Part shown: piece after piece, positions 3,975 to 38,349 of the stretch | Position numbering within the stretch: position 1 is the stretch's first letter | How the letters are laid out: each line of letters begins with the position of its first letter | DNA from: an uncultured Eubacteriales bacterium | GTDB taxonomy: Bacteria; Bacillota; Clostridia; TANB77; CAG-508 | DNA: 64,000 nucleotides | Direction of reading: 5' to 3' | Assembly (NCBI GenBank): GCA_902492015.1 | Contig: CABUJR010000006.1 | Location: forward strand, 50,421 to 114,420 | Notes under the pieces: model-generated | What the model was told of the DNA's origin: nothing | Databases searched by the model: none | Seen by the model: only the letters and a program-made list of their open reading frames with translations | Program-made: the position numbers and the translations under genes

Positions 3975-4015
3975 AGTTTATATGAAAACTAATTGAAAAA
4001 AGGATAAATAAAGTT

Positions 4016-4046
4016 CTAGCAAGAATATTTTGCTAGAGCTTTTTTA
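4016..4046 (+). terminator. Rho-independent terminator after tyrS
   Basis: Stem ctagcaa / ttgctag with a 7-nt loop, followed by a T-run. Confidence 0.7.
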
Positions 4047-4083
4047 TTTACTAGGAAAGTGCTCCGTACCTACTACTAAATAA
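4041..4083. repeat. ~40-nt repeat copy A (TTTTTTATTTAcTAGGAAAGTGCTCcGtaCCTaCTaCTAAATA) at left edge of GC-rich islet
   Basis: Near-identical to the 21061-21100 copy and partially to 6756-6792. All three follow a terminator hairpin. Confidence 0.6.
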
Positions 4084-4228
4084 AGGTTTACGCCCAATAT
4101 TGCACACAAGTTTTTTTCAAAAAACTTGGTAGGACGAACAAAGACGTGAACATCTTCATAAAATTTAATCTTTTGCAATTATCATAATGTACACTTTTGT
4201 TCTATGATAGAAAGGACTCTTACTTAAG

Positions 4229-4257
4229 TTGAAAATATTATGTAAATATGTTATAAT
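4229..4257 (+). promoter_or_regulatory. Sigma-A-like promoter for the rSAM islet (TTGAAA-17-TATAAT)
   Basis: TTGAAA at 4229-4234, 17-nt spacer, TATAAT at 4252-4257, about 95 nt upstream of the rSAM start. Confidence 0.5.
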
Positions 4258-4354
4258 AAAAAATGGTAATCTTTGTTAGAGAATAAGACAAGTGGATAAG
4301 CTTGTTAGGTAGATTCTCAAAACAAAAAACACAAAGTATCAAGGAGGAACGAGT

Positions 4355-5728
4355 ATGAAGCTAAGAACAAGGATGTACCTACGGAAAAGACTAAATGAAG
4401 TCAAACACACAACTTTAAACCCAAACGGGCCAGGTGTTGTTCGGATTCATTTGGTGCCACCGAAAGCTGGCAAAGAAGATGCACCAGCAGTAGTAATTAT
4501 TAACGGAAGGGATTTGCTGCCTATTAAACCTTCGTGGAGTTTACTTTTGGCAGAATTCATAACGCAAATAAACTACTATGCTGGAAAATCTCTTTCAGAG
4601 GATGACCTTCGCACAATAAGAGATAACACTTTTGTGCAGGTAACGAAGGTTTTCAGGAAAGTGGATCGCGACCTGTTAAGAGATGACCTGAAATCACTGA
4701 TGGACACGTTATGTAAGATTGCATACGGAGAAGAAGTGGACGAAGACATTCCATATATGTCTATCGGTGAATATGCATCCTACATGAGTGCTCCGCACAG
4801 AATTGATTTAATGATAAGCAGTATGACCAAATCTGGAAAATGGCATTGTAACCAGAGATGTGTTAACTGCTATGCAGCAGGTCAGACTGAAGCGGAAGTC
4901 AATGAACTTTCTACAGAAGAGTGGAAGAAAATCATTGACAAATGCAGAGCCGCATATATACCACAAATTACATTTACCGGTGGAGAACCAACAATGAGAA
5001 ATGACTTGGTAGAACTTATTGACTATTCTCAATGGTTTGTAACCAGGTTAAATACCAATGGTATTCTCCTCTCAAAGGAGCTTTGTAAGCAACTTTATGA
5101 GGCGAGCTTGGATAGTGTACAAATAACTCTATACTCATCTGACGAAGCCGAGCATGAGGCACTTACCGGTAGTTGCGGTACCTTTAAACACACAGTACAA
5201 GGAATAAAAAATGCCATAGAGGCAGGACTGAATGTGAGTATTAATACTCCGCTGTGTAAAGGAAACTCAGATTATGTAAAAACACTCAAGTTTTTGCATA
5301 GCTTGGGAGTAACTTATGTTTCTTGTTCTGGTATTATTTTTACTGGAAATGCGAGAAGCAAGACTGCAAAGGAAAAGCAACTGACAGAAGATGAGCTTTT
5401 CAAGATTCTTAAAGAAGCGACAGCATATTGCTGGCAAAATGATATGGAGATTGCATTTACATCTCCTGGGCAAGTTTCAGAAGAAAAACTTGAACAGCTC
5501 GATCTATCTCTTCCCACATGTGGTGCTTGCCTTAGTAATATGGCTATCGCACCAAATGGCAATGTTGTTCCATGTCAGAGCTGGTTAAATGGCAATTCTG
5601 TATTAGGAAACATGCTGTCTGATCCGTGGAAGAGAATTTGGAATTCCCCTAAAGCCTTAAGTATCAGGGAGTTTTCTGCTCGGATGGAGCATACATGCCC
5701 ATTAAAGACAGTAAAGGAGGACAAATAA
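4355..5728 (+). CDS. Radical SAM enzyme with SPASM/twitch-like C-terminal Cys-rich domain and ~160-aa N-terminal (RRE-like?) extension
   Basis: CNQRCVNCYAAGQ (CX3CX2C) at about aa 165. Later Cys clusters CKGNSDY, SCSG, CGAC...PC, HTCP. Strong RBS aaggaggaacgagt-ATG. About 43% GC against a 27% background. Confidence 0.85.
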   Translation: MKLRTRMYLRKRLNEVKHTTLNPNGPGVVRIHLVPPKAGKEDAPAVVIINGRDLLPIKPSWSLLLAEFITQINYYAGKSLSEDDLRTIRDNTFVQVTKVFRKVDRDLLRDDLKSLMDTLCKIAYGEEVDEDIPYMSIGEYASYMSAPHRIDLMISSMTKSGKWHCNQRCVNCYAAGQTEAEVNELSTEEWKKIIDKCRAAYIPQITFTGGEPTMRNDLVELIDYSQWFVTRLNTNGILLSKELCKQLYEASLDSVQITLYSSDEAEHEALTGSCGTFKHTVQGIKNAIEAGLNVSINTPLCKGNSDYVKTLKFLHSLGVTYVSCSGIIFTGNARSKTAKEKQLTEDELFKILKEATAYCWQNDMEIAFTSPGQVSEEKLEQLDLSLPTCGACLSNMAIAPNGNVVPCQSWLNGNSVLGNMLSDPWKRIWNSPKALSIREFSARMEHTCPLKTVKEDK

Positions 5729-5729
5729 T

Positions 5730-6689
5730 ATGAAAGCAAAAACAATGGTAACACGGATAATTATTGTTTTGGCTGTTATTTTCACTTTACTGCCAATAAC
5801 AGTATATGCCAAAGAACCCCTGGATGAAATCCAGGACTACACAGTAACAGTTGACCTTAGACCTGATGGAACAGCAGATATCAAGTATCATCTGGAATGG
5901 AAGGTACTTGATGACAGTTCAGAAGGCCCTTTGGAATGGGTAAAAATAGGTATTGCAAATGAGAATGTTGATGAAATTACAGCATTAACAAGCAATATAA
6001 GCAAGATCAAATATTACCCAGAGGGATCAGATGATTATGTTCGCATAGATTTTGATAGAAAATACTATGCGGGGGAAGTCATAAATTTTGATTTCTCACT
6101 TCATCAGAGTCATTTGTACGTAATGGATAAAGAAGAGCATCTGCTCAGATATTCTTTTACACCGGGCTGGTTTCCTGAAATTGAGGTAAAAAATATCACT
6201 ATCAAATGGAATAAAAATAATGTGATTAAAACCTCAGCAGAACAAGAAGATAGCAATGGATATTATGTTTGGAATGGAAGCTTAAGCTTTGATGAAAGGC
6301 TTAATGCATCTGTTTCTTATAATCTGGATGCTTATGCTGCTACTGAAGAAGGTCAGGCTCAAGAAAAGGAAGAAGATGGAATACCAACGATTTTGGTAAT
6401 AATTCTTATTGTACTAATTGTTATATTGGTAATAGTAGTTCTTGTAGCTATCTTTTCAAACGATGATGATTATGGTTCTGGTAGAGGTTATGGAGGAGGC
6501 TCTCATTATAGGAGCACATATATCCATACACATCATTCTTCTTGCGTAAGTAGCTGTGCTTGCGTGCATTGTGCATGTGCATGTGCATGCGCAGGCGGTG
6601 GAAGAGCAGGATGTAGCAAGAAAGACTTCTACGGTACTAATCTTAAGAAAGACATGATGGATAAGGTTCTAAGCGAAGAGCTGGACTAG
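5730..6689 (+). CDS. DUF2207-like single-pass membrane protein with cytoplasmic Cys/Gly-rich tail (putative rSAM substrate)
   Basis: Signal peptide, about 190-aa ectodomain (IQDYTVTVDLRPDGTADIKYHLEWKV), TM helix IPTILVIILIVLIVILVIVVLVAIF, and tail ...GGGSHYRSTYIHTHHSSCVSSCACVHCACACACAGGGRAGC. Start is 2 nt after the rSAM stop, with RBS aaggagg. Confidence 0.6.
   Translation: MKAKTMVTRIIIVLAVIFTLLPITVYAKEPLDEIQDYTVTVDLRPDGTADIKYHLEWKVLDDSSEGPLEWVKIGIANENVDEITALTSNISKIKYYPEGSDDYVRIDFDRKYYAGEVINFDFSLHQSHLYVMDKEEHLLRYSFTPGWFPEIEVKNITIKWNKNNVIKTSAEQEDSNGYYVWNGSLSFDERLNASVSYNLDAYAATEEGQAQEKEEDGIPTILVIILIVLIVILVIVVLVAIFSNDDDYGSGRGYGGGSHYRSTYIHTHHSSCVSSCACVHCACACACAGGGRAGCSKKDFYGTNLKKDMMDKVLSEELD
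6570..6593 (+). repeat. (TGYGCA)4 hexanucleotide microsatellite encoding the CACACACA tract
   Basis: tgtgca tgtgca tgtgca tgcgca, in frame as Cys-Ala repeats. Confidence 0.8.
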
Positions 6690-6723
6690 TAAAAGACCAA
6701 AAAAAGATTTAATTTGTGTTAAA

Positions 6724-6765
6724 GATAGCAGGGCGGAGATTTCCGCGCCTGCTATCTTTTTATTA
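6724..6765 (+). terminator. GC-rich rho-independent terminator ending the rSAM islet
   Basis: gatagcagggcgg ... ccgcgcctgctatc stem followed by tttttatta. Confidence 0.75.
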
Positions 6766-6792
6766 TATAATAGGAAAGTCCGCTTGGCTTCC
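6756..6792. repeat. Degenerate repeat copy C (ATAGGAAAGTCCGCTTGGCTTCC) at right edge of islet
   Basis: Shares the T-run plus TAGGAAAGT(G)C core with copies at 4041 and 21061. Confidence 0.4.
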
Positions 6793-6913
6793 AATTCTTA
6801 TAGTGTCCTATTTTGTTCCATTCTTCTTATTATAATTACTTTATAATTACTTGAAAAAAATTTTATAAAATAGTAAAATATTATTGTTATTTAATATTTG
6901 AAAGGAACAAGAT

Positions 6914-7690
6914 ATGAGTAAAAAGTTAAAATTTTTGATAATTATAGTAAGTTTAGCAGTAATAATAGGTTTAACATTCGGGATTATGGCAATATATAGA
7001 TTTTGTGTTATTCAAAGTATTTTTAAAAAGATAGATGAAAATATAGAGATAAAAAATTATTCATTAAAAACTACTTTAACAAATAGCAATGGAGAAAAAA
7101 CTGTTACACAAGCATATTATAAAGATGGAATTGGAAAAAATATTGCTTCAAATGGAGTTTATACTTGGGTAGATGAAAAGGATGCATATATGGTAGATGA
7201 AGATAATAATACACTATATGTTTTAGATATAGAAGGGGAAAATTCTATTTCATTAGTTTCTGATTCTATGTTTGCAAGTTTGGTACCAGGATATAATAAA
7301 AGCTTTTTTGAAAGAATTCTTATGGCATGTGATTTAAATTATAAAATTAAGTCTGAAAAATTAGATGATCAAAAATGTTATGTAATTGAAGATAATGAAC
7401 AAAAAGCTAAGAAAACAGTTTGGATTACTAAAGATAGAAAAAATCCAATTAAAGCAAAAGTAGAATTTGAAAATGGAGAAGTTTTTGAATATGATTATGA
7501 GCTAAAATTTTTAGGAACAAAATTAAGAGATGTTGAACTTCCAGATACCAAAAATTATACTTTGATAAATTATGAAACCGGAGAAGTAATTTTAGATGAA
7601 AATGATAATGTAAATTCAGAAACAAATACTGCTAATGAAAATACTAATACAACAAATACAGATGAAGCAAGTAATGTGGTAGAAAACTAG
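6914..7690 (+). CDS. Hypothetical membrane-anchored/secreted protein
   Basis: N-terminal hydrophobic anchor, RBS aaagga, and an Asn/Thr-rich C-terminus. Confidence 0.5.
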   Translation: MSKKLKFLIIIVSLAVIIGLTFGIMAIYRFCVIQSIFKKIDENIEIKNYSLKTTLTNSNGEKTVTQAYYKDGIGKNIASNGVYTWVDEKDAYMVDEDNNTLYVLDIEGENSISLVSDSMFASLVPGYNKSFFERILMACDLNYKIKSEKLDDQKCYVIEDNEQKAKKTVWITKDRKNPIKAKVEFENGEVFEYDYELKFLGTKLRDVELPDTKNYTLINYETGEVILDENDNVNSETNTANENTNTTNTDEASNVVEN

Positions 7691-10296: not shown

Positions 10297-10620
10297 ATTT
10301 ATATATCCTTTCAGGCATTTAACGCAAGTTACATCTATTATTAATATATGTACATATATATAATAACTTAAAAATATTAATATATCAACATATATTATAT
10401 TTTTTTGTAACATTTTGAATACAAAATTTTGTTTGGCTTGGCTGTTAGAACAAGTAAAATTTATTATATAGCTGTATATAAAGCGATAATCTAGTAAGAT
10501 GAGTATTTAAGAAAAAAACATTTTGTTGGATATATCACATATGAACTCGACGTGGTAACAGATGGAAATGTTAAGAAGCTTAAAGAGGAAGACTAGGATA
10601 TAAAAAAGTAAAAGAAGAGT

Positions 10621-10645
10621 AGAGCAGATTTCTCGTCTGCTCTAT
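10621..10645 (-). terminator. Terminator for 10667-11455 gene
   Basis: agagcaga...tctgctct hairpin with a T-run on the minus strand. Confidence 0.6.
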
Positions 10646-10666
10646 AAAATATTTGCCATATAAAAT

Positions 10667-11455
10667 TTAATTAGTATCTTTTGAAGAGTTATTTATTATT
10701 GTCTCCTTCATTTCATCACTTAACTCTAAAGAATCTTCAAGGGTATCAAATTGATATCCAGTATATATTTTTGAATATTCTAATTTATTATGATTATTGT
10801 AGTGTTCTTCTTTATTCAATAAACCATTATATGTATTAATATATATTAAAATTTTTTCATAAGTTTCATTACCATTTGTACTTAATCCATCGTTATCTTC
10901 AAATATAAAATCATTATAGTTAAAATCAATTTTTATTATTTTAGTTGGATTTAATAAAAATGAGATATTATAAAATTTTTTTAAGTTTTTATTCACTAAC
11001 TCATAAGGAGAGCTAGATTCATAAGAAAAGCCTTCTTCATAATTGTAATCATGAGTTAAATCTTCAATGCTAGTTAAACCTTGGGCCTCATTAAAGTCAT
11101 AACAATCAGTGTAGCTAGCTTTATTTTCAGGATTTGTATAATACCAAGAATTGACAACTTTATGATAATTAGTTATCGAACATTCAGAAGAAATATCATT
11201 TTTAAATTGAATATTGCTTTCTGTGAAAGATGGTTTATGTATAATTTCATCGTTTTCAATATCAATAGAAGTTATATCAAAATATGCATTACACAAATAC
11301 ATATAATTATTGGAATCCTTTATTTTCCCAATTTTGAAAGATATATAACTCATAATAAAAGCTTTATAAATTATTGTTAAAAAATATAAAATAAGTAATA
11401 TCAAGATTATATTTCTAATTAATTTTAATATACTAAATTTTTTATTCTTTTCCAT
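10667..11455 (-). CDS. Hypothetical membrane-anchored protein
   Basis: 262-aa ORF with an N-terminal TM helix. No recognisable domains. Confidence 0.45.
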   Translation of the reverse strand: MEKNKKFSILKLIRNIILILLILYFLTIIYKAFIMSYISFKIGKIKDSNNYMYLCNAYFDITSIDIENDEIIHKPSFTESNIQFKNDISSECSITNYHKVVNSWYYTNPENKASYTDCYDFNEAQGLTSIEDLTHDYNYEEGFSYESSSPYELVNKNLKKFYNISFLLNPTKIIKIDFNYNDFIFEDNDGLSTNGNETYEKILIYINTYNGLLNKEEHYNNHNKLEYSKIYTGYQFDTLEDSLELSDEMKETIINNSSKDTN

Positions 11456-11646
11456 ATAAATTTCCTCCTTTGTATAAAGAGTCTACATATATATTATACC
11501 ACAATCGGCTTGAAATAGCAAATTATAGAGAGTTTAGAAACATTTAAATAGATTAAAAAATTAATAAATATAAAACTAAAAAATAAGGTTTACAAATTAT
11601 AATTTTATATATAAAATAGATTATATTTGAAAGGTAGGTAATTAAT

Positions 11647-13359
11647 TTGGGAATAGGAAGAAGAGAGGTAGAAAGAAAAGATAGAAAAGTTAATATATTA
11701 AAAATACTTATAGTTATAATACTTATAGTAGCTGTAATTGTTGGAATATATTTTCTTGTAAAAAATCTTGGAAAACAAAGCAATGAGGATTATAATAAAA
11801 AAATTGAAGATGCTTTAGTTGAAGAGGTTGAAGAAGTAGAAAAGAAAACTATTGAAGAAATAGTATCAGAATTTGGCGGAGAAATAAAAGAACAAGTAAA
11901 TGATGATACATATTATATTATGAAAGATGGAAAAGAATATACTGCATACCTAGATGGAGATGTAGTAGAAGGAAGAATTGCAATTTGGAATGGTACTGCA
12001 AGTCAACCTGCTGTTGACGAGGCAGGAAATTTAAATATTTATAATGCAGAAGAATTAAAATGGGTTGCAGATCAAGTTATTTCTGGTGCTAAAAATTTTA
12101 GTGGTGTAACAATTACTTTAAGACAACATATAGATTTAAGTGGAAGAAAAAATGATGATGGTAGTTGGTCTGGTACTATTTGGACACCAATAGTTGGTTT
12201 TTTAGATGAATTACCAAAAACTGAAGATACAAATCAAACACAAAATCAAGTAGTAGAAGACACAACAGTTCAAGATGATTCTGTTAATATAACTAAGGAA
12301 AATTTAAAAAGATTTGCTGGTGTATTTAATGGCAATGGATTTTCTATAAGAGGGTTAAATATTGATTCAGATAAAAGATATGAAGGTTTATTTGGATTTA
12401 ATGCAGGTATAATTTCAAACTTAACAATTAAAAATAGTAACATCAAAGGTGGCACAGGAGTCGGAGCAATAGCAGGTTTGAACAGTGGAACAATAGAAAA
12501 TTGTTATCTTGAAAATGTTGAAGTTAAAGGTAATGAAAAAGTTGGTGGGTTTGCTGGAATTAGTATGGAAAATTCTAGAATAGATGGTTGCAATATAACT
12601 GGAGATAATACTTTTGTTTATGCTGACAAATATGCTGGCGGAATTATTGGTTATACAAATAATAATGCAACAATATTAAACTGTTCTAATAGAGCAAATG
12701 TTACTGGAAAAGATTATGTTGGAGGAATTTCAGGAATTATATTCTATGGTACTACAGTTCAAAGTTCTTCTAATATGGCTATAAATGTTGTTGGTGAAAA
12801 TTATGTTGGAGGTATAGCTGGTTATTCTCTAGCTCAAATTCAAAATAGCTATAATCACAATTCAGAAGACAAAAAAGGTATTGTAAGTGGAAATAATTAT
12901 GTTGGTGGAATAGTGGGATTAAATTATACCATGGGAAATATAACAGATTCTTATAATAGTGGAGAAATAATTATAAAAGCAGATAATGGCGGAGGTATTG
13001 CAGGATTAAATAATGCAAGCATTAGCAATACATATAACACAGGAAAAATAACTGCTGAAGAAGCAACTGGAATTAAGATAGGAGGCATCTGTGGTCAAAA
13101 CATATCTGAAAGCTATATATATACTTCTTATAATATTGGCGATATAATTGTAAAAAATGCTGGTGATGGAGTTGTTGGAGCAAATTTCGGAACAATAGAA
13201 AACTGTTTTTATCTAGATACTACAATTAATTCACAAAATACAGAAAATGCTAAGACTGATAATGATATGAAAACTGGTATTTTATCAAATTTAGGAGAAT
13301 CATTTAAAGAAGATGCTGAAAATAAAAATTCAGGTTATCCAATACTTGCATGGCAATAA
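11647..13359 (+). CDS. Membrane-anchored surface protein with tandem (Y)VGG(I)xG repeats (GLUG-like beta-helix repeats)
   Basis: TTG start with RBS aggtagg. N-terminal TM helix. At least 8 repeats of type NYVGGIAG / DYVGGISG / KVGGFAGI. Confidence 0.6.
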   Translation: MGIGRREVERKDRKVNILKILIVIILIVAVIVGIYFLVKNLGKQSNEDYNKKIEDALVEEVEEVEKKTIEEIVSEFGGEIKEQVNDDTYYIMKDGKEYTAYLDGDVVEGRIAIWNGTASQPAVDEAGNLNIYNAEELKWVADQVISGAKNFSGVTITLRQHIDLSGRKNDDGSWSGTIWTPIVGFLDELPKTEDTNQTQNQVVEDTTVQDDSVNITKENLKRFAGVFNGNGFSIRGLNIDSDKRYEGLFGFNAGIISNLTIKNSNIKGGTGVGAIAGLNSGTIENCYLENVEVKGNEKVGGFAGISMENSRIDGCNITGDNTFVYADKYAGGIIGYTNNNATILNCSNRANVTGKDYVGGISGIIFYGTTVQSSSNMAINVVGENYVGGIAGYSLAQIQNSYNHNSEDKKGIVSGNNYVGGIVGLNYTMGNITDSYNSGEIIIKADNGGGIAGLNNASISNTYNTGKITAEEATGIKIGGICGQNISESYIYTSYNIGDIIVKNAGDGVVGANFGTIENCFYLDTTINSQNTENAKTDNDMKTGILSNLGESFKEDAENKNSGYPILAWQ

Positions 13360-20193: not shown

Positions 20194-21042
20194 ATGCAAA
20201 TGATAAAAAATAAGTTTTTACTTATAAGTATATTAATAATTATTTTTATTAGCTTTAGTTTTAGTAGTTCTTATGCTATAGATGTACCAGAAAAGGATAT
20301 TAATTTAGTTATAAAGAATTTAACTAGAGGTTCAGAAGTATATATGTTGTTACCAGAAGATTTAGTAAGATATAATATGCAAAAATTTATTGATAATAAT
20401 ATAGAAAATGTATACTTAGTTGAAAAACAAAAAGCAGAAAAAATTAAAGATTTTTTAGATAAAAATGATTATATTGGATATTTAAATTATCTTATAGAGC
20501 AAAGTTTTGAATGTGAAGATAATGAAATAGAGATAAGGCATTATTGTTTCTGTATAGGAAAATCTGAAATTATTGATTATATGGAATATGAAGGAGTAAA
20601 ATATATCCAGATAAAAATTCATCTAAATTATAATGATGAATTTAAATTAATAATGAAAGATTATTTAACAGAGTATGATGCTTCAAATATAAAATTTATG
20701 ATTGATGAATATGGTTCTATTAGTTATATACATTTGGCTCCAGCAGAATTTAAAGTCAATCCAGATAAACCTTATATTACTGAATATAATTTGATACATA
20801 CTTTTTATAATAATGAAGACTATGGAGAAATTGAAAGAGCTACTGATTTAGCTTATATAATAATTTGGATTATATTAATTATAATTGGAGTAGTGATATT
20901 TAAAAATATTGAGGTGAAACGAAAAGCTAAAAAAGAAGAAATTGAAGCCAGAAAATTTTGGAAGAAAAAACTATCAAAAGAAGAGATTAAAGTAGCAAAA
21001 TCGCAAGCAAAAAAAGAGAAAAAAGAAAAAAATAAAAAATAG
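20194..21042 (+). CDS. Hypothetical secreted/membrane protein with Lys-rich C-terminal tail
   Basis: Signal peptide, C-terminal TM helix, KRKAKKEE... tail. Confidence 0.45.
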   Translation: MQMIKNKFLLISILIIIFISFSFSSSYAIDVPEKDINLVIKNLTRGSEVYMLLPEDLVRYNMQKFIDNNIENVYLVEKQKAEKIKDFLDKNDYIGYLNYLIEQSFECEDNEIEIRHYCFCIGKSEIIDYMEYEGVKYIQIKIHLNYNDEFKLIMKDYLTEYDASNIKFMIDEYGSISYIHLAPAEFKVNPDKPYITEYNLIHTFYNNEDYGEIERATDLAYIIIWIILIIIGVVIFKNIEVKRKAKKEEIEARKFWKKKLSKEEIKVAKSQAKKEKKEKNKK

Positions 21043-21059
21043 GAAAATTTTATTTTCCT
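21041..21059 (+). terminator. Terminator hairpin (aggaaaat...attttcct) plus T-run
   Basis: Overlaps the stop codon of the 20194 gene. Confidence 0.6.
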
Positions 21060-21060
21060 A

Positions 21061-21100
21061 TTTTTTATTTAGTAGGAAAGTGCTCTGCGCCTCCTAAATA
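21061..21100. repeat. ~40-nt repeat copy B (TTTTTTATTTAgTAGGAAAGTGCTCtGcgCCTcCTAAATA)
   Basis: About 85% identical to the 4041-4083 copy. Confidence 0.6.
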
Positions 21101-21249
21101 TTATTTTGTTAATAAATTCTTAATAATTTCTCTATTTTTTCTTAATAACTTTCTGTTATAATTAAAATAGTTAAAAAGCTTGACGAGGGAGTTATAAATT
21201 TTTATAATGAAATGAATAAAAGTAAATAAATAAGAATAGGGGATTTAAA

Positions 21250-36369: not shown

Positions 36370-37848
36370 ATGAAAAATAAAGATGAAAACAAAGTTAAAT
36401 TAAGAGAAAAAATTTCATTAACTTTTAGAAGAAAATGGCTAGTAAATGGAACAAAAACATTTTTAATAGTAGCTATAATAATTGCAGCATATATTGCATT
36501 AAATTTATGGATTAAACAATTAGATTTACCAGAAATAGATATTACTGAAAACCAAATATATACATTATCAGATGCTTCAAAAGAAGCAGTAGCAAAAGTT
36601 GATCAAGAAGTAATTATATATTGTTATGGATTTCAAGAAGATTCAACTTTTGTAGATTTATTAAAACAATATAATAAAGTAAATGATAAAATTAAATATG
36701 AAATGTTAACAGAAGAATCAAATTATGAAATGATTCAAGAACATGATTTACAAGAAGGATATACTGTTTTAATATTAAAATCAGGAGATGCTGAAAAAAT
36801 TGTAGATGCCTCAACAGATTTTACAACTTATGATTTTACAACAGGACAAAGTGTTGATACAACAGAGCAAACAATGACAAATTCAATACTTGCTTTAACT
36901 GAAGAAAATAAACCAAAAATTTATTTTGTACAAGGACATAATGAATATAAGTTAGAAGAAACAACTGTACTTACAACATATTTAACAAATGAAGCATTTG
37001 AATATGATTCTTTAAACTTAGCAACTGCAGGAGCTATACCGGATGATTGTGATATTTTAGCAATATTGTCACCAGATAAAGATATATTAGATACAGAAGC
37101 TCAAGCTATAAAAGATTATATTAATAAAGGTGGAGCAATCTATTTTTCAATGGATGTAGTATCTGAGACTGTTTCTTTACCAAATTTACAATCTGTATTA
37201 GATGAATATGGCGTATCTGTAAAAAATGGATATATATTAGAATATGATGAAGGTAAAGCAAATGAATCATCTCCTTATGTATTTATACCAGAAGTTTCAT
37301 CTACTAATGAAATTACAAGAGATATTTATTCAGATAGTAATTTATGGCTTGTTTATTCAGCAAAACTAGAATTTAAAGATGATGCAACATTAGAAAGTTT
37401 AAATGTTACTAAAGAAACATTAGTTTCTTCTTCAGATGAGGCAGCCTTTATTACAGATATATCTTCAGATATGAAAACAGCTGCACAAACAGCTGAACTT
37501 GGAAAAGCTGAAATAGGTTCTTTATTAACCAAAACAATTGGTGAAGGAGAAGATGCTAAAGAGTCAAAATTAATTATAATGGCCTCAGGAAGTTTTATTT
37601 CAGATGTAATGACTAATGGTGGATATCCTTTATCATATTTAGGAAGTAATAAAGACTTTGTTATAAATGCAATGGCTTATTTAGGAGATAAAGGAAATAA
37701 CCTAACAATAAGAAAAGATATGGCAAATTCAACTTATTTACCAACTGAATCACAAGATAGAATTGTTCTAACAATTATATTTGTAATTCCTGTATTAATT
37801 ATAATAGTTGGAATAGCAATTTGGACATATAGAACTAAAAGAAAATAA
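36370..37848 (+). CDS. GldG-like ABC transporter auxiliary protein
   Basis: N- and C-terminal TM anchors around a large extracytoplasmic domain. Operon with the ABC-2 genes. Confidence 0.65.
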   Translation: MKNKDENKVKLREKISLTFRRKWLVNGTKTFLIVAIIIAAYIALNLWIKQLDLPEIDITENQIYTLSDASKEAVAKVDQEVIIYCYGFQEDSTFVDLLKQYNKVNDKIKYEMLTEESNYEMIQEHDLQEGYTVLILKSGDAEKIVDASTDFTTYDFTTGQSVDTTEQTMTNSILALTEENKPKIYFVQGHNEYKLEETTVLTTYLTNEAFEYDSLNLATAGAIPDDCDILAILSPDKDILDTEAQAIKDYINKGGAIYFSMDVVSETVSLPNLQSVLDEYGVSVKNGYILEYDEGKANESSPYVFIPEVSSTNEITRDIYSDSNLWLVYSAKLEFKDDATLESLNVTKETLVSSSDEAAFITDISSDMKTAAQTAELGKAEIGSLLTKTIGEGEDAKESKLIIMASGSFISDVMTNGGYPLSYLGSNKDFVINAMAYLGDKGNNLTIRKDMANSTYLPTESQDRIVLTIIFVIPVLIIIVGIAIWTYRTKRK

Positions 37849-37877: not shown

Positions 37878-37911
37878 CTGAGATTGAATTTATTCAATCT
37901 CAGTTTTTTTC
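37878..37911 (+). terminator. Terminator after ABC operon
   Basis: ctgagattgaa / ttcaatctcag hairpin followed by ttttttt. Confidence 0.75.
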
Positions 37912-38349
37912 TTATATAATAAAAAAAATAGTAAAAAAGTCCTCTAAACTTCTTATTATATAATGGTTTCATAAAATATTATACATGAATTTTATAAACA
38001 ATAAATATTCTTATTTAATTCTTAATTTTTTATTAATTTTACTTAAAATTACTATAAAATATAAGCTTAAAAGTGCCTATTTTACAGCATTTTTAAAAAT
38101 TTTTAAATTAAGATATAAGAAAAAGAGAAAAAACGAGATATAATGAGATGATTTACAAAGAAAATGATATATTATTTGAATAATTGTTTCCAAATTTAGT
38201 ATTTTTTTCTTTTAAAAAGCTTTTTTAGGAAATTGCTTTTTATACAAAATGAGAGTATTATAGTCTTGTAGAAATGCATATATTTTCAAATCTACCCAAA
38301 TTTGAGAGTATGTACATTATTTACTATCTTTAAACAATAGGAGATTTTT

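Follow-up and report, generated by a model that had tools for sequence, protein, structure and literature searches.

The SPRITE repeats of pneumococcus, described in 2011, form an 18-bp duplex followed by a U-rich tract and lie close to the 3′ ends of genes (PMC3049150). They occur in tens of copies with a leading-strand bias of ∼63%, show no convincing terminal inverted repeat (TIR) beyond runs of T or A, and have no known target duplication or transposase (PMC3049150). Judged by analogy, SPRITE appears to be the closest described counterpart of a repeat family that we characterized in a 64-kb stretch of contig CABUJR010000006.1 from an uncultured Eubacteriales bacterium (the window, meaning the whole stretch analysed). 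Both repeats are AT-rich, non-coding and shorter than 200 nt; in both, a duplex of ∼18-19 bp (19 bp in hairpin 1, HP1, of the window element) is followed by a T/U-rich tract, and tens of copies lie near the 3′ ends of coding sequences without convincing TIR, target duplication or transposase. The two are likened by description, since their sequences differ and their host clades are distant, so that homology is not expected. The window element differs further in that a 110-nt body carrying two more conserved hairpins is attached to HP1, that it lies behind an existing terminator whereas SPRITE apparently serves as one, and that its orientation bias (20/21 copies) is far stronger than the SPRITE leading-strand bias. 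A literature search for terminator-targeting MITEs (transposable elements of the miniature inverted-repeat type) in Firmicutes found nothing specific. We conclude that this is a new repeat family of an already known kind of element, modular, non-coding and interspersed, with HP1 as its left-terminal module, and consider it fairly probable that the family is selfish, non-autonomous and MITE-like or SPRITE-like.

The first-pass annotation had placed a repeat of ∼40 nt at three positions of the window, 4041-4083 (copy A), 6756-6792 (copy B) and 21061-21100 (copy C), and all three copies were present there. Alignment of A with C, reported as ∼85% identical, gave 36 identical columns out of 43 (∼84%), with a 27-nt gapless block containing one mismatch, TTTTTTATTTA[C/G]TAGGAAAGTGCTC[C/T]G. 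B had been described as keeping the T-run plus a stretch ending in CCGC, and indeed has only the T-run and TAGGAAAGT in common with A and C. Its 5′ arm TATATAATAGGAAAGT matches at 16/16 positions a copy of a diverged subfamily (L022, 5790-5624) in CASKJV01, an uncultured Clostridia metagenome-assembled genome (MAG), and on this match B is a genuine, diverged member of the family. Because the window has a GC content of only 25.6%, similarity between AT-rich sequences is cheap; the GC-containing core TAGGAAAGTGCTC was nonetheless over-represented, with 5 matches at ≤2 mismatches against 1.1 expected. A covariance model of HP1 was built from 16 diverse copies. A, B and C were among the training sequences and match by construction (62.5, 50.3 and 55.0 bits respectively). 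The same model recovered a fourth copy from outside the training set, D (37908-37967; 25.8 bits, E ∼0.008), whose HP1 and linker align with copy A and with the copy at the tyrS site of lineage L064. The window thus carries ∼1 copy per 16 kb, all on the + strand and every one behind a terminator.

The copies are real but the extent first given to them was too short. The 40-mer is only the first module, HP1, of a longer unit, and makes up the opening 43 nt of copy A, itself a complete element of 160 nt; true extents reach 4203 for A, ∼6819 for B and 21110 for C (Table 1). The full form measures ∼155-165 nt and consists of HP1, a linker, HP2, HP3 and a T-tract. In consensus, HP1 follows the host terminator and its T-run as ATTTAGTAGGAAAGTGC-TCT-GCACTTCCTACTAAATAAA, a stem of ∼19 bp with one bulged A. 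The linker AGCTTCGCTAATTTTTGCACA leads to HP2, CGATTTTGT-ACA-ACAAAATCG, then GCGCTTC, and HP3 reads GAACAAA-TAC-GTGGACGAT ... ATCGTCCAC-TTTTGTTC. Copy A aligned end to end, at 72-75% identity, with copies from CASKJV01, CANEMG01 and CANOVB01, and was matched over 4035-4223 with 143 bits by an nhmmer model of 15 sequences that included copy A itself. Its right end, ..GTACACTTTTGTTCT, falls at 4203, ∼25 nt ahead of a promoter-like site (4229-4257) of the radical S-adenosylmethionine (rSAM) gene that follows. The region matching the weakly conserved tail beyond this end folds as a fourth hairpin in some copies elsewhere (L027, L029). Shortened forms recur (L018, L033, L017, L019, L021, L040, and B, C and D of the window), copy C having the same architecture as L018 (HP1 + ATATCGTCCATTTTTGTTCT). 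The indels between copies rule out a conserved open reading frame (ORF).

RNAalifold, run on 14 full copies, predicted HP1, HP2 and the inner stem of HP3, with double compensatory changes at 10/35 predicted pairs; GC was replaced by AU in five sequences, for example, in HP2 and in HP3. Within HP1 taken by itself, 87.6% of cells were paired and 7 pairs had changed on both sides; the observed covariation was reached in 0/500 shuffles, and slid controls paired at 37-51%. In each of three lineages (window, CANOVB01, CASKJV01) HP2 has a sequence of its own, and all three are palindromic. From these alignments, conservation of structure would fit a hairpin that functions in single-stranded DNA or in RNA. 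A riboswitch, a leader or a known small RNA was rejected: Rfam gave zero matches in the window at the gathering threshold and only noise at E≤10 on copy A and one CASKJV01 copy, and the downstream gene starts anywhere from 6 to 755 nt away.

Three observations concern individual hairpins. In 3 of ∼22 copies (L027 ∼500-552, L034 ∼2562-2611, L040 ∼5955-6005) HP1 is flipped with respect to the remaining modules, with loop AGA in place of TCT and the bulged base on the opposite arm; these copies look like the product of an inverted hairpin loop or of correction from arm to arm. The HP1 stem of L015b and L022 is perfect and bulge-free. Finally, Logan contigs L002, L003, L007 and L008 all end inside the HP2 palindrome CAAGTTTTTTTCAAAAAACTTG (4107-4128), 151 nt past tyrS. 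We rejected these contig ends as evidence for empty sites, since all break inside a perfect inverted repeat and represent an assembler artefact, not strain variation.

Spread of the family was followed with an exact-pattern scan for the 18-mer TTTASTAGGAAAGTGCTC over 185,579 species genomes. Among these, 27 loci matched exactly, and 22/27 fall in one clade of MAGs. CASKJV01 alone had 15 exact matches on 10 contigs, plus extra diverged copies; other exact matches came from CANEMG01 (3), MGOU01 (3), CAOTKV01, CAORJJ01 and CANOVB01 (1 each). The remaining exact-pattern loci, which include Nanopelagicus, Saccharibacteria, Nonlabens, Okeania and an Actinobacteria MAG, had no extended similarity. 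In the aligned copies a unit of 153-156 nt is conserved and the flanks are unrelated from copy to copy. The element thus has dispersed copies with unrelated flanks, a length below 300 nt, no coding function and three conserved hairpins, as an interspersed repeat does. The main CASKJV01 subfamily is 90-94% identical internally, indicating recent amplification, and copy A is 72-75% identical to it. CASKJV01 copies follow unrelated housekeeping genes and, in one case, a tRNA gene. Two organisms already known from the genome scan came back in the metagenome scan, together with chance matches, the viral scan gave 6 isolated single matches, and the plasmid and phage collections gave no match to the element. 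These results bear out the alternative that the first-pass annotation had named last, a small dispersed repeat family. They also make it hardly credible that the copies are chance resemblances between AT-rich terminator tails. In favour of chance stand the GC content of 25.6% and the behaviour of TTTTTATTTA, which taken alone is not enriched in the window (12 matches, 8 expected); for the latter reason we also rejected a T-run plus ATTTA as a general terminator tail. The block shared by A and C, however, spans the GC-containing core, the exact 18-mer is concentrated in a single clade, and homology runs for ∼155 nt.

In one of the genomes the left end is attached to a different body. MGOU01 (Clostridiales bacterium GWD2_32_19, a groundwater MAG) contains a different repeat of ∼155 nt, at L020 4407, L026 5231 and L041 1900, which has in common with the window element its initial 24 nt (TTTATTTACTAGGAAAGTGCTCCG) and, at the right end, GCAC and a T-run; the rest is unrelated. 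After the left end it forms a long hairpin, GTCATTGCGAGGAACGAAGCAATC...GATTGCTTCGTTCCTCGCAATGAC, and it terminates in GTGCGATAGCACATTTTTTAT; one copy has a 59-nt insertion, and 2/3 copies lie behind terminators. A left end common to an otherwise unrelated element points to this end as the part that is recognised. Separately, the CANOVB01 locus L036 has a copy with a ∼52-nt insertion between HP2 and HP3 (7034-7086) and a further weak copy just upstream (6762-6833), making a nested or tandem cluster.

The first-pass annotation had placed all three window copies directly 3′ of a terminator, and folding of the 44 nt upstream agreed (A, -17.0; B, -27.6; C, -9.7 kcal/mol, against a mean of -3.0 in random windows). 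The terminators abutted are those of tyrS, of the partner gene of the rSAM gene, and of ORF 20194-21042, and each copy itself folds as a second hairpin, an imperfect one. Over all listed sites, the upstream 44 nt formed a hairpin of ≤ -8 kcal/mol in 20/28 cases, whereas only 4.75% of random windows did so, and the sites without one were mostly wrong-strand palindrome matches or second members of tandems. The upstream ORF was co-oriented in 20/21 copies for which one could be called, and most copies lay within ∼35-80 nt of its stop codon. Since the T-run before ATTTAG varies from 5 to 8 nt and the upstream stems all differ, the terminators are host sequence and lie outside the repeat. Short forms and HP3 themselves carry TTTTGTT after the stem. 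Abutment to a T-tract at >20 independent sites in one orientation suggests a real recognition of hairpin plus T-tract.

Locus L015, which holds two head-to-tail dimers, was considered as a case of insertion behind the element's own HP3 and T-tract. We rejected this, as in one dimer the two partners are more alike than either is to any further copy (95.5% identical mutually, ≤85% to all other copies). The dimers are therefore, in at least one case, local tandem duplications, which probably formed between flanking T-runs.

The same position invites another explanation, that the element is a structural module useful to the host, whose hairpins act as DNA or RNA behind terminators and whose copies are kept by selection. 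It might serve as a back-up terminator or insulator, protect mRNA 3′ ends, or bind a nucleoid- or topoisomerase-type protein as proposed for REP/BIME. The strict position and orientation would be expected of such a module, as would stems maintained by compensatory changes; short forms (HP1 plus T-tract) and HP3 with its T-tract resemble intrinsic terminators in their own right, and the 24-nt left end is kept even in the different element of the distant MGOU01. We nevertheless hold this explanation unlikely. At the tyrS site the window has a full copy, L064 a truncated one and L062 none that can be recognised, and five other lineages have no copy there; the window organism and its close relative Candidatus Scatovivens faecipullorum hold different fragments at site C; and copy number among relatives ranges from at least 15 exact copies in CASKJV01 to 0 in ∼60 kb of Ca. 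S. faecipullorum loci. Loss from orthologous sites, differing fragments and uneven copy number agree better with a selfish repeat that drifts than with a function that is maintained.

Copies A and B flank an islet of 2.7 kb with a raised GC content (rSAM gene 40%, partner gene 37%, neighbours 25-28%). The first-pass annotation had read them as a duplicated target or att-like pair produced by insertion of this islet into a site resembling C, and had named an integron-like or Xer-dependent cassette as possibilities. Two direct-orientation family members on either side of an islet that is absent in the closest relatives would be in keeping with HP1 as an att, attC or dif-like site made by, or mediating, integration of the rSAM cassette, and a hairpin with a bulged base is superficially attC-like. 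However, A and B belong to different subfamilies and differ in form, A being a whole element that ends at its own right end ahead of the cassette promoter, and B a short one. Elsewhere the same repeat follows a tRNA gene and housekeeping genes that have nothing to do with tyrS. On these grounds and those given below we regard an origin of the pair in cassette integration as very improbable.

Comparison with relatives gave the same answer. The window organism is close to Ca. S. faecipullorum (tyrS 98% amino acid identity, DNA ∼90-92%), in which tyrS is followed directly by the orthologue of the gene at 6914 and the cassette is absent. There, window positions 3989-6839 are replaced by 224 nt. 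The edges of this indel lie 52 nt before A and ∼20 nt after B and are thus not the edges of the repeats. The check that had been proposed, for a single uninterrupted copy at cassette-free sites, was run: no HP1 motif follows tyrS in Ca. S. faecipullorum or in four other cassette-free lineages (tyrS 98%, 96%, 92%, 91%). The rSAM cassette occupies this very site in two lineages that are more distant. L062 (tyrS 92%, rSAM 77%) has kept the orthologous B and has no recognisable A, and the stem of its tyrS terminator is related to that of the window; L064 (tyrS 91%, rSAM 70%) has a truncated A and lacks B. The presence of the cassette at one site in these lineages indicates that it is an old resident which has been lost in some lineages, and it persists with only B or only A beside it. 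A and B are old insertions that arose independently of each other behind two successive terminators, decay separately, and are not products of cassette integration. Two neighbouring occupied terminators are unsurprising at ∼1 copy per 16 kb confined to terminators.

Copy C, proposed as the unoccupied site, is an internally deleted short form. Its orthologous site in Ca. S. faecipullorum carries a different, right-end-like remnant (..TATCAAGCTTTGTTCTTTATAAATAG), and we therefore rejected that species as a clean empty site for C. Different remnants at one site indicate that both species inherited an old full copy, and different remnants of the element are found at orthologous sites of sister species.

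The site itself also lacks the marks of known integration systems. As the first-pass annotation had noted, there is no integrase or transposase in the cassette. Integron attC sites lie between RYYYAAC and GTTRRRY cores, in arrays of cassettes that lack promoters and with intI in the vicinity. Neither HP1 nor the whole element shows a GTTRRRY core at its ends, the rSAM operon is served by a promoter of its own, and copies follow housekeeping genes, all of which speaks against an integron-like cassette. Of the Xer/dif site (28 nt, 11-nt arms, 6-nt spacer) neither the 11-6-11 architecture nor an XerD-arm-like sequence was visible, and the sole dif resemblance was an 8-nt match, ACTTCCTA, to what we take to be the left arm of Bacillus dif. 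The cassette reading was thus abandoned and the dispersed-family fallback retained; both of the outcomes that the first-pass annotation had itself listed against its leading idea, a terminator-associated motif with copies unrelated to insertion boundaries and cassette-free relatives without a single-copy site, are what we observed.

The cassette (4355-6689) comprises an rSAM/SPASM gene and a gene for a 319-aa partner with a weak DUF2207 N-terminal match. Orthologous cassettes in the sister lineages L062 and L064 have 35% and 31% GC, and the two closest lineages are without it. On the + strand, 4204-4354 contains no ORF of ≥20 aa, hence no obvious precursor-peptide ORF. Directly behind the tyrS terminator of Ca. 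S. faecipullorum (L042 ∼11350-11460), ahead of the next gene, comparison with L045/L056 revealed a 109-nt indel (TAAGTGTTAAAATCAG...AAATGAAATAAT), a small insertion polymorphism within that species, whose sequence is unrelated to the HP1 family.

Among other described repeats, BOX (of pneumococcus) and BIME/REP resemble the window family in that hairpin modules are recombined, lost and duplicated, giving short forms, dimers and an optional fourth hairpin, in their intergenic location next to genes, and in stems kept by compensatory change (PMC3049150, PMC3733652). By eye, no kinship in sequence is apparent. REP is a palindrome of 20-40 nt with an unpaired GTAG or CGTC as a tag on one side (PMC3733652); GTAG thus lies outside the stem in REP, whereas here it is paired within the HP1 stem, and copy A has CTAG in its place, copy B and the L022 variant ATAG. 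No RAYT (HUH Y1 transposase) gene was found in windows of ≤∼8 kb around the matches.

Classical MITEs (Correia/NEMIS, RUP, bcr1) are likewise small, non-coding, multicopy, strongly structured and prone to subfamily bursts, and bcr1 is also ∼155 bp long; it is flanked by TTTAT. The window family differs from them in that the ends of the full element are not a clear inverted repeat and that neither a target-site duplication nor a parent insertion sequence (IS) was found. Where classical MITEs have TIRs of ∼15-30 bp, here HP1 alone is a near-perfect 19-bp inverted repeat. PATEs derived from IS200/IS605 carry a similar subterminal hairpin at each end, both recognised by a single TnpA, and have a fixed target of 4-5 nt on the left. 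In the window family HP1 and HP3 are unrelated in sequence and no TnpA was found; the constant left-flank T-run is compatible with such a target.

Class C (IIC) group II introns insert strand-specifically just downstream of intrinsic terminator hairpins, and so occupy the same niche. To our knowledge, the niche of terminator hairpin plus T-tract is otherwise known only for these introns. The window element differs from them in being ∼155 nt long, with no ribozyme domains, no reverse transcriptase and no Rfam intron match even at E≤10, and is not a member of that family. It could instead be an undescribed terminator-homing element, whose 24-nt end TTTATTTASTAGGAAAGTGCTCYG would be recognised by an enzyme and which would insert strand-specifically at the 3′ edge of hairpin and T-tract. 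We find this doubtful. If it were true, the flip/flop of HP1 in 3 of ∼22 copies would hint at a hairpin or single-strand intermediate.

The selfish, non-autonomous repeat remains our preferred reading. It fits the absence of coding capacity, the burst of 90-94% identical copies in one genome, the decayed remnants, the uneven copy number and the harmless position. Membership of one family, its anatomy and copy number, abutment and orientation at terminators, decay, and the missing motif at cassette-free sites are shown directly; we infer mobility in trans, active targeting rather than survivorship, and neutrality. An element of this kind would be copied in trans by an enzyme recognising the left end ATTTASTAGGAAAGTGCTC and a right end made of hairpin and T-tract. 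New copies would either arrive at the 3′ edge of terminator T-tracts or persist nowhere else, this being a transcriptionally quiet and harmless site, and would decay through internal deletion into HP1-only remnants.

Several points weigh against this reading. Changes that preserve the hairpins could stem from self-correction of palindromes in the absence of selection. In inverted orientation, the full element's two ends have no more than ∼6-7 nt in common (AAAGTG / CACTTT), and it is therefore not a textbook TIR-bounded MITE. Terminator abutment could in principle reflect survivorship together with selection for a host function, and the L015 dimers, local duplications in at least one case, are no demonstration of targeted insertion. 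The loci examined contained no autonomous partner or mobilising enzyme, nor a related autonomous IS with the same ends; the genes beside truncated copies, and those separating isolated left from right ends, are housekeeping genes. Inspection of translated ORFs beside eight truncated copies revealed no transposase, and the metagenome scan no autonomous copy. An autonomous element between the isolated left end L033 and right end L029 of one contig was rejected, since the intervening 2.7 kb lacks a candidate enzyme; it encodes a 189-aa predicted membrane protein and a 503-aa ORF that by eye resembles IMP dehydrogenase. Junctions of 13 full copies were free of copy-specific direct repeats. The loci compared gave no clean filled/empty pair, so that the ends stated for the element are approximate.

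Table 1. Repeat copies and the host terminators they abut, in window coordinates.
Feature	Position	Strand	Basis
tyrS intrinsic terminator, 15-bp stem + T-tract; host sequence abutted by A	4010-4045	+	terminator scan, fold -17 kcal/mol
Copy A, complete, ∼156 nt, ATTTAC (4046) to ..CACTTTTGTT (4201) plus CT	4040-4203	+	
Copy A layout	T-run 4040-4045, HP1 4043-4084, linker, HP2 4107-4128, HP3 4136-4202	+	
HP1 of copy A, stem ∼19 bp, loop TCC	4043-4084	+	covariance model, 62.5 bits
HP2 of copy A, CAAGTTTTTT-TC-AAAAAACTTG; sequence unlike other lineages, pairing kept	4107-4128	+	compensatory pairs
HP3 of copy A, GAACAAA..GTGAACAT / ATGTACAC..TTTGTTC + terminator-like T-tract; right end of element	4136-4203	+	
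Weakly conserved tail past right end, ATGATAGAAAGGAC; resembles start of B-type HP1	4204-4217	+	
Terminator of rSAM-partner operon + T-tract; host sequence abutted by B	6724-6761	+	-27.6 kcal/mol
Copy B, short, degenerate: B-subfamily HP1 (TATATAATAGGAAAGTC..GCTTCC..TTATA), then right-end remnant GTGTCCTATTTTGTTCC	6757-6819	+	
Terminator of ORF 20194-21042 + T-tract; host sequence abutted by C	21041-21066	+	
Copy C, short form: HP1 then directly right-end T-tract TTATTTTGTT; internally deleted	21061-21110	+	
Copy D, decayed: HP1 with A-rich insertion, linker, HP2-like part; behind terminator of ORF 36370-37848	37904-37999	+	

Other differences between the window and its relatives were noted in passing. 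Upstream of tyrS, 1070-2275 encodes a 401-aa DUF2207_C protein; on several contigs with an identical tyrS (L002, L003, L006, L007) gene calling splits it into two ORFs (209 + 179 aa), which suggests a frameshift or pseudogene polymorphism within the species. In Ca. S. faecipullorum, a gene for a 324-aa member of the choloylglycine-hydrolase family (PF02275, CBAH; L042 8551-9518) sits between the DUF2207_C gene and a 95-aa gene, and is cleanly absent from the window at ∼2279/2280. Window positions 10436-11582 (1.15 kb) are replaced by ∼41 nt in the same species, with no HP1-like copy flanking; they include a 262-aa ORF on the minus strand (10667-11455), whose matching 262-aa gene in L001 has no recorded Pfam match. 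A 570-aa ORF (11647-13359) contains internal direct repeats of 33-56 nt spaced by 87-177 nt (12696-13180). Its 570-aa orthologue in related contigs has a faint Glug match, and it is probably a repetitive surface-protein gene.

These results remove a false lead, in that the rSAM/SPASM operon beside tyrS is not bounded by integration scars. Its patchy distribution therefore needs another explanation, either old acquisition followed by loss or recombinational replacement. They also add a repeat family for the poorly known uncultured gut Clostridia, Ca. Scatovivens and relatives. Short-read assemblies break at repeats of this sort, as seen in the four Logan contigs that stop in HP2. If the association with terminators reflects true targeting, the family would offer a compact system for how a mobile element recognises terminator structure.

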